NCBI GenBank assembly: GCA_018303005.1
Contig: JAGVYY010000001.1
Location: 1 to 52,113, forward strand
Direction of reading: 5' to 3'
DNA from: Candidatus Woesearchaeota archaeon
GTDB taxonomy: Archaea > Nanobdellota > Nanobdellia > SCGC-AAA011-G17 > GW2011-AR20
Length of the DNA stretch: 52,113 bases
The position numbers and the translations under genes were made by a program. Numbering within the stretch: position 1 is the stretch's first letter; the number at the start of each line of letters is the position of its first letter. Of the stretch, positions 3,259 to 4,122 are shown one piece after another. The notes beneath the pieces are model-generated. The model ran no database searches. It worked only from the letters and a program-made list of their open reading frames with translations, and was not told the origin of the DNA.

Positions 3259-4122
3259 ATGGTACACAAATACAGCAACAAGCCTGAAATTTATAACAGA
3301 GAATCCATTGATGTTTATCTTAGAGAGATATCCAAAATACCTTTGATAATGCGTGAAGAAGAATCAGAACTTGCAAGAAAGAAAAGAGGAGGAGACCAAG
3401 ATTCGCTGGACAAACTTGTCAAATCAAACTTAAAGTTTGTTGTGTACATTGCCAAGAACTATCAAAATTATGGCCTTCCACTGGATGATTTGATAAATGA
3501 AGGGAACCTTAGACTGATAAAGGCTGCAAAAAGATTTGATGAAACAAGAGGATTTAAATTTATCAGCTATGCTGTCTGGTGGATCAGACAAGGCATATTA
3601 CAGGCATTAATATCTGCACCATATCAGAAATTACCCAGAGATTTTTTAAAGCAAAAAAGAGCTGTTGATTGTACTATTAGTTTATTGGAGCAAAACCTTG
3701 GTAGAGAACCGACATTACTCGAGATAAGTGAAGAATCCAATATTAATCAGAATGAATTGGATTCATTTTTTATCTCAAAATTTAAAATGATGCATCTGGA
3801 AGATACTATTGGCAATGATAACAAAAGCAATCAGTATCATAACTTTATTGAAGATACTATTATAGCAAAACCTGACGAAGATTTATATCGAAATAATATG
3901 AAGAATGATATTGTAAATGCCCTAAGAACCCTTCCTGAAAGAGAATGTGAAGTTTTGATATTGTATTTCGGGATCAACGAGCATAGACCCTATACATTAG
4001 AAGAAATAGGCACTCGTTTTGGGCTGACAAGGGAAAGAATAAGACAGATAAAACTGAGTGGATTAAACCGTTTGCGAAATACTCATAAAGGTTTACCTTT
4101 GCGTAAATATAAGGAAGATTAA
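3259..4122 (+). CDS. RNA polymerase sigma-70 family factor (bacterial type, regions 1.2-4.2 present)
   Basis: 287-aa ORF. Region 1.2 is [14 protein letters not shown]. Region 2 is [37 protein letters not shown]. Region 4.2 HTH is [29 protein letters not shown]. Confidence 0.85.
   Translation: [287 protein letters not shown]

Follow-up and report, generated by a model that had tools for sequence, protein, structure and literature searches.

The stretch of DNA considered here, positions 1 to 52,113 of contig JAGVYY010000001.1 from a Candidatus Woesearchaeota archaeon (assembly GCA_018303005.1; "the window" in what follows, always at its full length of 52,113 nucleotides), carries a gene for a complete sigma-70 factor. 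Archaea initiate transcription with TBP and TFB and not with sigma factors. The gene lies between rpl10e and a gene for a class II lysyl-tRNA synthetase (LysRS), and it is almost certainly a real gene that has been retained under selection. Its product descends from a bacterial primary sigma factor, and the most likely role for it, at about even odds, would be that of a transcription or DNA-binding factor acting within the archaeon.

The phenomenon itself is known. Castelle et al. 2021 (Front Microbiol, PMC8204110) described sigma-70 genes in DPANN archaea as family fam00359, most prevalent in Woesearchaeota; they ruled out mis-binning, found no anti-sigma factors, called the mechanism unclear and recorded the archaeal TBP, TFB and TFE as present in DPANN. 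An earlier reading of the window, made from its letters alone (the sequence-only reading), had tentatively mentioned such genes in some DPANN metagenome bins, and this was correct. The window gene belongs to this already described set: like the others, it lies on an archaeal contig of a Woese- or Pacearchaeota-type lineage, with no anti-sigma factor found nearby. The published work is a family-level census only. What is added here is an orthologue group fixed in the rpl10e–sigma–LysRS slot, its affinity to sigma factors of the FCB superphylum, the pattern of selection and evolution, the promoter context, and a second sigma lineage on another contig (L255). A literature search found no functional study of archaeal sigma factors.

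The open reading frame (ORF) is exactly the one that the sequence-only reading had delimited (Table 1), and its product is a complete member of the sigma-70 family with the architecture of RpoD and RpoS (group 1/2), in which region 3 is borderline. Pfam matches span the whole protein and not just a partial helix-turn-helix. Regions 1.2, 2, 3 and 4 had all been claimed; 1.2, 2 and 4 score above their cut-offs, and region 3 falls just below (25.0 versus 25.3 bits). The region 2.2 motif DLINEGN occupies residues 77–83, a region 2.3 motif with Q as its last letter, residues 98–111 (equivalent to E. coli 424–437), and the recognition helix of region 4, TRERIRQIK, residues 257–265 (E. coli 583–591); E. 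coli numbers are those of the window protein plus 326, from a PDB sequence alignment. The top NCBIfam models are RpoS and RpoD types (190–208 bits), and the cut-off of the sigma-70 superfamily model is passed. The protein nevertheless fails to qualify as an equivalog of RpoD or RpoS, its scores staying below the respective cut-offs (TIGR02394 for RpoS, the top match, 208.5 bits versus 378.7; RpoD, 205.2 versus 500).

Structural comparisons agree with this assignment. In a sequence search of the PDB, residues 16–284 align with SigA, RpoS and RpoD chains (E 1e-41 to 7e-50). An AlphaFold model built from 53 sequences is of moderate quality, with a mean predicted local distance difference test (pLDDT) score of 64.5 and a predicted template modelling score (pTM) of 0.35. 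Region 4 is modelled best (pLDDT 79–91), region 3 forms three helices at residues 127–180 (72–83), and the 3.2 linker is of low confidence (below 50 at residues 173–205). The top 50 Foldseek matches in the PDB are all sigma-A, sigma-70 or sigma-S chains, with a probability of 1.0 over 244–340 aligned columns; their template modelling scores of about 0.27 reflect a differing arrangement between domains as well as the moderate quality of the model.

The nearest relatives, drawn from a 5.8-billion-protein index, the GTDB species representatives and JGI metagenomes, are sigma factors of about 285 residues with 44–53% identity. Those that are named belong to Latescibacterota, Calditrichota, KSB1, Gemmatimonadota, Ignavibacteriota, Bacteroidota and Zixibacteria, and one of the relatives, P0004, sits in a plainly bacterial gene context. 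These comparisons show a bacterial origin, with the short primary RpoD/SigA of the FCB superphylum as the source type, and so bear out the earlier suggestion of horizontal acquisition (FCB-group relatives of this kind are about 50% identical). The FCB short sigmas have the same length and architecture, lack region 1.1 and start at region 1.2, as the window protein does; identity runs over the whole protein at 44–51%, and the ILQAL-ending signature and the LYFG...LTRERxRQIK segment of region 4 are common to both. The FCB signature ends in (A/S)ILQALAEQSRIVRLPLN, of which the window protein keeps the first half, whereas the AEQSRIVRLPLN half has been replaced, with a three-residue deletion. Unlike the FCB proteins, the archaeal ones are found in an archaeal host, sit on a very long branch, keep only 72–75 of 96 conserved positions and have lost the sigma-finger segment. 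E. coli RpoS and other group 2 sigmas are likewise similar in size and have region 1.2 without region 1.1, but the window protein falls far short of the RpoS equivalog cut-off and its closest relatives are FCB primary sigmas, not proteobacterial RpoS.

Within the FCB-type relatives, a neighbour-joining (NJ) phylogeny did not single out a donor phylum. P0002 (SRR3989338), at 61% apparently the closest relative, was rejected: its residues 1–116 are identical to the window protein and the remainder is a typical bacterial FCB sigma; a read-level chimera joined across the conserved region 2 motif is the probable explanation. A viral origin was also rejected, as relatives in IMG/VR are at most 45% identical and more distant than the bacterial ones.

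The setting of the gene is clearly archaeal, and DPANN-like, throughout the 52 kb. Pfam and NCBIfam identify archaeal markers on both sides of it, namely uL16, GatD, GatE, DtdA, RtcB with archease, a diphthine-synthase-like TP_methylase, deoxyhypusine synthase, PvlArgDC, ATP-dependent DNA ligase, TrmB and FtsZ. The sequence-only reading had listed gatDE, dphB, dys, dtdA, rtcB and intron-containing tRNAs as its archaeal context; the protein genes were recovered (dphB as the diphthine-synthase-like gene), but only one such tRNA was. The distance to rpl10e is 158 nt rather than the 160 nt given there. Its statement that the stop codon of the convergent class II LysRS overlaps the sigma gene was right: the TTAA at 4119–4122 contains the stop codons of both genes, an overlap of 4 nt. 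The gene also shares the low GC content of its neighbours, as had been noted (0.336, against a gene mean of 0.333), and it is host-like also in GC at third codon positions (GC3; 0.29, where the mean is 0.30), in its codon fit (rank 19 of 54) and in its tetranucleotide distance (29th percentile). Its composition is thus that of an ameliorated gene and not of a recent passenger.

The same locus has been assembled many times. Altogether 19 contigs, which come from several samples of JGI and ENA, encode an identical sigma protein, and the gene order L10e–sigma–LysRS–PIN–MazE, assembled independently in JGI and ENA samples, was the same in all five loci examined. Aligned flanks differ from the window by 0–6 nt in four of the five and by more in L164, where the differences lie outside the tabulated genes; the sigma gene itself shows no difference in any of them. 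Because the junctions have been independently re-assembled on 19 contigs with the same order, a chimera of assembly or binning, which the sequence-only reading had proposed to check for, is excluded.

Orthologues in other archaea were found only by following the relatives of LysRS to their contigs; with the single protein as query, the GTDB species representatives and JGI metagenomes yielded nothing but bacterial FCB relatives, at about 45–51%. (The closest named relatives of LysRS are in archaea, many of them labelled Pacearchaeota, Woesearchaeota or Nanoarchaeota, at 60–84% identity. LysRS was considered as a co-transferred partner of the sigma factor and rejected, being DPANN-wide and slow-evolving.) On contig L247, where LysRS is 81% identical, a sigma gene for 278 residues stands in the same slot, with LysRS convergent and rpl10e divergent. 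On L249/L250, from a Tara Oceans marine sample and with a LysRS 74% identical, the slot holds a sigma of 291 residues with the same 4-nt stop overlap. Beside the more distant LysRS genes of L251, L253 and L254 (63–66% identical) there is neither a sigma gene nor a remnant of one. The region 1.2 Pfam match recurs in the sigmas of L247, L249 and L255, and region 3 scores 24.3 bits in L247 and 30.3 in L249 against the cut-off of 25.3. A word-index profile search added only P0245, which is 77% identical to the L247 copy, and an exhaustive profile search of 1.84 billion representatives gave no further genuine orthologue; since nothing more was added, the syntenic group is small. Two candidates were rejected, P0315 as a duplicated bacterial sigma and P0316 as a 7,852-residue oddity. 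Embedded in the latter, at residues 3099–3356, is a sigma-70-like domain, which the archaeal sigma profile matches with 368 bits; the protein could be a gene-calling run-through.

The three syntenic sigmas are 41–47% identical in pairs, while LysRS from the same genome pairs is 74–81% and L10e 70–82% identical. Nonsynonymous divergence (dN) is 0.49–0.57 for sigma, against 0.12–0.17 for LysRS and 0.10–0.20 for L10e. Synonymous divergence (dS) is saturated (above 1.2 or undefined), so the classical dN/dS ratio is unusable between orthologues, and only the proportions of nonsynonymous and synonymous differences (pN and pS) and the integrity of the frames can be used. For sigma, pN (0.36–0.40) is lower than pS (0.59–0.68), and all orthologue copies are full-length ORFs. 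(Across the 19 contigs of the same species, population-level dN/dS is uninformative, as there are zero substitutions in sigma.) These comparisons show purifying but relaxed selection on a gene inherited vertically at one locus. The earlier suggestion of a retained gene is supported by the host-like composition, the orthologues in sister lineages and pN below pS, which mark it as more than a recent arrival; the homologues in sister genomes that it had proposed to look for are intact and conserved in L247 and L249.

Could the gene nonetheless be an artefact or a functionless passenger, either a chimera or a recent neutral transfer in decay? Its rate of evolution is indeed far above that of the genes around it, roughly one in four of the positions that bacteria conserve has been lost, and the database relative P0002 is itself chimeric. 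Against this stand the 19 independent re-assemblies of the junctions, a composition that is fully host-like, the excess of pS over pN, and the persistence of synteny and of intact frames across saturated synonymous divergence, when a frame of 287 codons would remain open in random sequence of the same composition with a probability of 2e-10 per lineage. We regard this explanation as extremely improbable.

A different sigma-70 gene is found at positions 6282–7115 (− strand) of L255, a DPANN contig with S19e, L31e, Cbf5 and Hjc in context and a LysRS 63% identical to that of the window. Its product, of 277 residues, shares with the window sigma an identity of only some 30% and has the signature STYATWWIRN; regions 1.2, 2 and 4 are present, and region 3 is without a Pfam match. 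The gene is flanked by one for a HerA/DUF87-type ATPase (with a weak TrmB match) and a radical SAM gene, and LysRS lies about 3 kb away. As this lineage is unrelated to the syntenic one, sigma genes have probably been acquired and kept more than once in DPANN, in agreement with Castelle et al. 2021.

Which parts of the protein have been held constant? Mean pairwise identity was calculated for the archaeal orthologues and, for comparison, for 30 bacterial relatives from several phyla. It is highest in region 2.3 (archaeal 0.88, bacterial 0.90), followed in the archaeal copies by region 2.2 (0.62, against 0.83), region 4.2 (0.62, against 0.75), region 1.2 (0.52, against 0.59), region 2.1 (0.48, against 0.79) and region 4.1 (0.47, against 0.52), and it is lowest in region 2.4 (0.36, against 0.85), regions 3.0/3.1 (0.27, against 0.52) and region 3.2 (0.19, against 0.46). 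Counting only positions that are at least 93% conserved in bacteria, each archaeal copy keeps 72–75 of 96 (the bacterial median is 95), and only 53 of the 96 survive in every one of the three syntenic orthologues. The window protein itself keeps 73, with its losses gathered in regions 2.4, 3.0 and 3.2, so that the sequence-only reading overstated the case in finding no obvious decay.

The residues that are invariant in the archaeal copies include several with known roles in E. coli. In region 2.3 they are Y104, W107, W108 and Q111 (E. coli Y430, W433, W434 and Q437); Y430, W433 and W434 serve in melting and capture of the −10 element. In the DLIxEGN motif of region 2.2 they are D77, G82 and N83 (E. 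coli D403, G408 and N409), and mutants of this region in E. coli are defective in core binding. In region 4, the LYFG of 4.1 is invariant, as are R258, E259, R260, R262 and Q263 of the recognition helix R.ER.RQ.K (E. coli R584, E585, R586, R588 and Q589), of which R584, E585, R588 and Q589 serve to recognise the −35 element. Between regions 2.4 and 3.0, on the other hand, the linker AEQSRIVRLPLN has been replaced, and is three residues shorter in two lineages; the sigma-finger segment DAPF...EDNSLLD has been lost in the archaeal copies, and the equivalent of E. coli E407 is a tyrosine in the L247 lineage. The alignment thus shows constraint concentrated on three elements, namely the non-template-strand and melting motif (region 2.3), the helix that binds the clamp helices (region 2.2) and the helix-turn-helix of −35 type (region 4.2), and relaxation of region 2.4 and of the parts that thread through the core enzyme (regions 3.0–3.2 and the sigma finger).

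The gene would probably be expressed by the means of its host. Upstream of the window genes, TATA-like hexamers concentrate at −35 to −26 from the start codon; for TTTAWA, 14 of the 26 occurrences within 70 nt upstream fall in this interval, often after a purine-rich stretch. A promoter position weight matrix (PWM) learned from 31 window genes, with sigma excluded, has the consensus AAAGATTTATATAA and a modal start of −35. The best element of the sigma gene, AAAATTTAATAACC, scores near the lower quartile of the training genes (median 5.3). In L247 a match, AAAGAATTAATAAA, starts at −36 with a score of 4.1, and in L249 a weak one (0.6) starts at −37, within a 56-nt intergenic region that also holds a strong TATA match, TTTTAAATA, for rpl10e (5.8). 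No Shine-Dalgarno sequence was found upstream of the sigma gene, which is therefore probably leaderless. In all three lineages the position of the element is weakly suggestive of a host-type leaderless promoter, the scores by themselves not being significant. The sequence-only reading, which had noted a TATA-like box at the usual spacing, was right about the position, but the score is modest (3.8, a value that 12% of random windows attain).

What, then, might a sigma factor do in an archaeon? The comparisons above show an FCB-type primary sigma gene that entered the common ancestor of a small DPANN clade of Pace- and Woesearchaeota-like organisms at the junction of rpl10e and LysRS and was then domesticated, being inherited vertically, kept intact, adapted to its host and held under purifying selection. 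It would probably be transcribed from an ordinary archaeal promoter, with a B recognition element (BRE) and TATA box, as a leaderless mRNA. Inside the archaeal cell, its product may serve as a sequence-specific DNA-binding transcription factor by way of sigma domains 2 and 4, and it would no longer serve a bacterial core RNA polymerase (RNAP) as initiation factor in the canonical way. Region 2.2 of sigma factors binds the beta-prime clamp helices; NusG/Spt5 and the TFE of archaea attach to the homologous coiled-coil of the clamp, and among the elements that bind sigma this one alone is common to all multisubunit RNA polymerases. Domain 2 might accordingly dock on this coiled-coil and add to, or compete with, TFE and Spt4/5; we think this specific step unlikely.

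Several observations weigh against this account of a domesticated DNA-binding factor. The high conservation of region 2.3 is found in the bacterial relatives also, and could stem from its place in the structural core of domain 2 and not from a melting function that was kept. The gene evolves fast, with a dN three- to fivefold higher than in LysRS and L10e, which might point to weak constraint or to a function in an arms race and not to a housekeeping regulator. In a bootstrapped NJ tree the archaeal copies group on very long branches, but with a support of only 46% for all four (66% for the window and L249 copies), and their monophyly is better supported by the shared insertion site. Random windows score as well as the promoter match in L247 in 9% of cases and in L249 in 59%, besides the figure already given for the window gene. 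In favour of the account, on the other hand, the 50-odd ORFs scanned in the window include neither a subunit of a bacterial RNAP nor an anti-sigma factor (nor a gene for secretion), and bacterial-type promoters show no enrichment upstream of the window genes; these 52 kb are the only part of the genome in view, however, and a partner gene may lie elsewhere.

A bolder alternative, which carries the docking idea further, is that the protein is a true initiation or melting factor for the archaeal RNAP, binding the clamp through region 2.2, capturing the non-template strand with region 2.3 and reading an upstream element with region 4.2, as a hybrid route for a subset of genes. That these three regions are the best kept, with Y104, W107, W108 and Q111 invariant, would fit such a role, and so would the retention of sigma genes at least twice in DPANN. 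The absence of TFE-beta from DPANN, reported in a review (PMC7289017), would leave room for another aid to melting. But no excess of bacterial-type promoters is seen upstream of the 54 window genes: TAnnTTTG, the −7 motif of FCB type, was counted 3 times where 4.0 ± 2.0 would be expected, and the composite of the FCB-type −33/−7 motifs, known from the Bacteroides literature, not at all. Canonical sigma-70 promoter-like sites number 108 in positions 1–20000, barely above the 90.7 ± 8.9 of shuffled sequences. BRE/TATA elements, by comparison, precede most window genes, that for sigma included, and the sigma finger and region 3, which bacterial initiation requires, are the most degraded parts of the protein. 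Archaeal RNAP is also not known to have the bacterial flap-tip helix that positions region 4. On balance, an alternative initiation factor of this kind seems quite unlikely. We would say much the same of its more particular form, in which sigma would sit on the clamp coiled-coil of Rpo1N, in place of or alongside TFE and Spt4/5, and together with region 4 would nucleate the opening of promoters, or stabilise it, for a subset of genes.

The target might also lie outside the cell, a bacterial RNAP of a host or symbiont being among the roles that the sequence-only reading had suggested. A sigma factor delivered to the RNAP of neighbouring FCB-type bacteria could redirect or jam their transcription as phage sigmas do, and the near-complete set of core- and promoter-binding determinants of FCB-type primary sigmas that has been kept (D77, G82 and N83; LYFG; RERxRQ) would suit this purpose, as would a rate of evolution typical of proteins in host interactions. 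However, the window offers no secretion system, mobile element or effector context, and sigma is flanked by housekeeping genes of translation. The known partners of DPANN cited by Castelle et al. (PMC8204110) are other archaea, and neither a delivery route nor a bacterial host is known. In addition, the sigma finger and regions 3.0 and 2.4, which a competitive sigma would need, are eroded, and E407 has become Y in L247. We consider this highly unlikely.

Sigma-70 domains do occur outside the housekeeping transcription of their hosts, in phage-encoded factors (for example those of huge phages) and in MzaA of the MZA anti-phage system, and a role in defence or otherwise outside transcription, as a sensor like MzaA or a single-stranded DNA-binding protein, was weighed. 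The MzaA models of NCBIfam (189.7 bits) and PADLOC (126.8 bits) match the sigma part, a PIN/MazE toxin-antitoxin pair lies two genes away, and the L255 sigma stands beside a HerA-like ATPase. The NCBIfam score is far under its cut-off of 800, though, and the match covers only profile positions 428–660 of 683. MzaA is a protein of about 700 residues with an N-terminal part, a C-terminal sigma domain and the partners mzaB–E; the window protein has the sigma domain only, the N-terminal stretch of about 420 residues being absent, and no mzaB–E genes were found in the window. The toxin-antitoxin pair is specific to the window lineage and absent from L249, and, unlike phage sigmas and MzaA, the window gene is in neither a provirus nor a defence island. 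A function of this sort is very unlikely.

Table 1. The sigma gene of the window, the encoded regions and the flanking features (positions in the window).
Feature	Positions	Strand	Remarks
rpl10e (uL16, archaeal/eukaryotic type)	2570..3100	-	syntenic anchor; NCBIfam NF003239, 197 bits, cut-off 91
Divergent intergenic region common to the sigma gene and rpl10e	3101..3258	.	158 nt; also divergent in L247 (82 nt) and L249 (56 nt)
BRE/TATA-like element AAAATTTAATAACC of the sigma gene	3225..3238	+	-34 to -21 from ATG; PWM score 3.8
Sigma-70 family gene, RpoD/RpoS-like	3259..4122	+	287 aa, ATG start; without region 1.1 and without non-conserved insert
Region 1.2, aa 16-47	3304..3399	+	Pfam PF00140 (Sigma70_r1_2), 35.5 bits, cut-off 22
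Regions 2.1-2.4, aa 50-120	3406..3618	+	Pfam PF04542, 65.7 bits, cut-off 24
Region 3, aa 141-207, eroded; includes the sigma-finger (3.2) segment	3679..3879	+	Pfam PF04539, 25.0 bits, cut-off 25.3
Region 4, aa 221-274	3919..4080	+	Pfam PF04545, 58.6 bits, cut-off 24.1
Class II LysRS, convergent with the sigma gene	4119..5588	-	syntenic anchor; NCBIfam NF001756, 584.7 bits

A few other features of the window deserve mention. Between LysRS and a THUMP methyltransferase gene lie the PIN/MazE-type toxin-antitoxin pair (5606–6285, − strand) and an unannotated ORF of 218 residues (6381–7037); because the methyltransferase directly flanks LysRS in L249, the block at 5606–7037 is an insertion specific to the window lineage. 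The GC content of the PIN gene is unusually low (0.21, with a GC3 of 0.135). The only tRNA gene detected in the window, at 17909–18006 (+ strand; 98 nt), was not called by ARAGORN and has a 27-nt insert beside the anticodon-loop positions that is presumably an intron. An ORF of 184 residues at 22318–22872 (− strand) matches positions 4–166 of the 347 in the MFS_1 profile, and is either a truncated transporter or a gene fragment. In a nucleoside diphosphate kinase ORF of 194 residues at 27165–27749 (− strand), the 135-position NDK profile is matched in two stretches, which suggests an insertion in the domain.

The rtcB gene (23112–24623, − strand) is interrupted in a different manner. Inside its conserved HWGYGFPIGGV motif lies a 33-nt insert, UGAAGUUUUAGAAAAGCUCUAUACUUCCUCUAG, at 24356–24388, with an in-frame UAG. 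Removing it joins GGU-U|AU-GGC (G-Y-G) and restores the canonical motif; the insert-free gene encodes 492 residues that match positions 1–426 of the 426 in the RtcB profile with 528.7 bits, against 459.3 bits for the 397-residue ORF alone. The insert can be folded as a hairpin that stands on a helix between the two exons, its 5' junction marked by a bulge of 3 nt and its 3' junction by one of 1 nt, although the z-score of the fold is only −0.71. It looks like a candidate intron of a relaxed bulge-helix-bulge type, and the mRNA that holds it encodes none other than the tRNA-splicing ligase. Splicing of archaeal pre-mRNA has a precedent in cbf5 of Crenarchaeota (PMC2738675), and no report of an intron in rtcB mRNA was found in a literature search.

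Sigma on the one side and TBP/TFB on the other mark the textbook divide between bacterial and archaeal/eukaryotic initiation of transcription. A sigma factor that is kept under selection in archaea may mean that it has been rewired, to a non-cognate polymerase or to DNA binding independent of any polymerase, or else that these symbionts act on bacterial partners. The map of constraint, with regions 2.2, 2.3, 4.1 and 4.2 held and regions 2.4 and 3.0–3.2 released, indicates which interactions should be probed first. If sigma did engage the clamp and help to open promoters, this would be a working hybrid of bacterial and archaeal initiation, and one that had evolved at least twice in DPANN.

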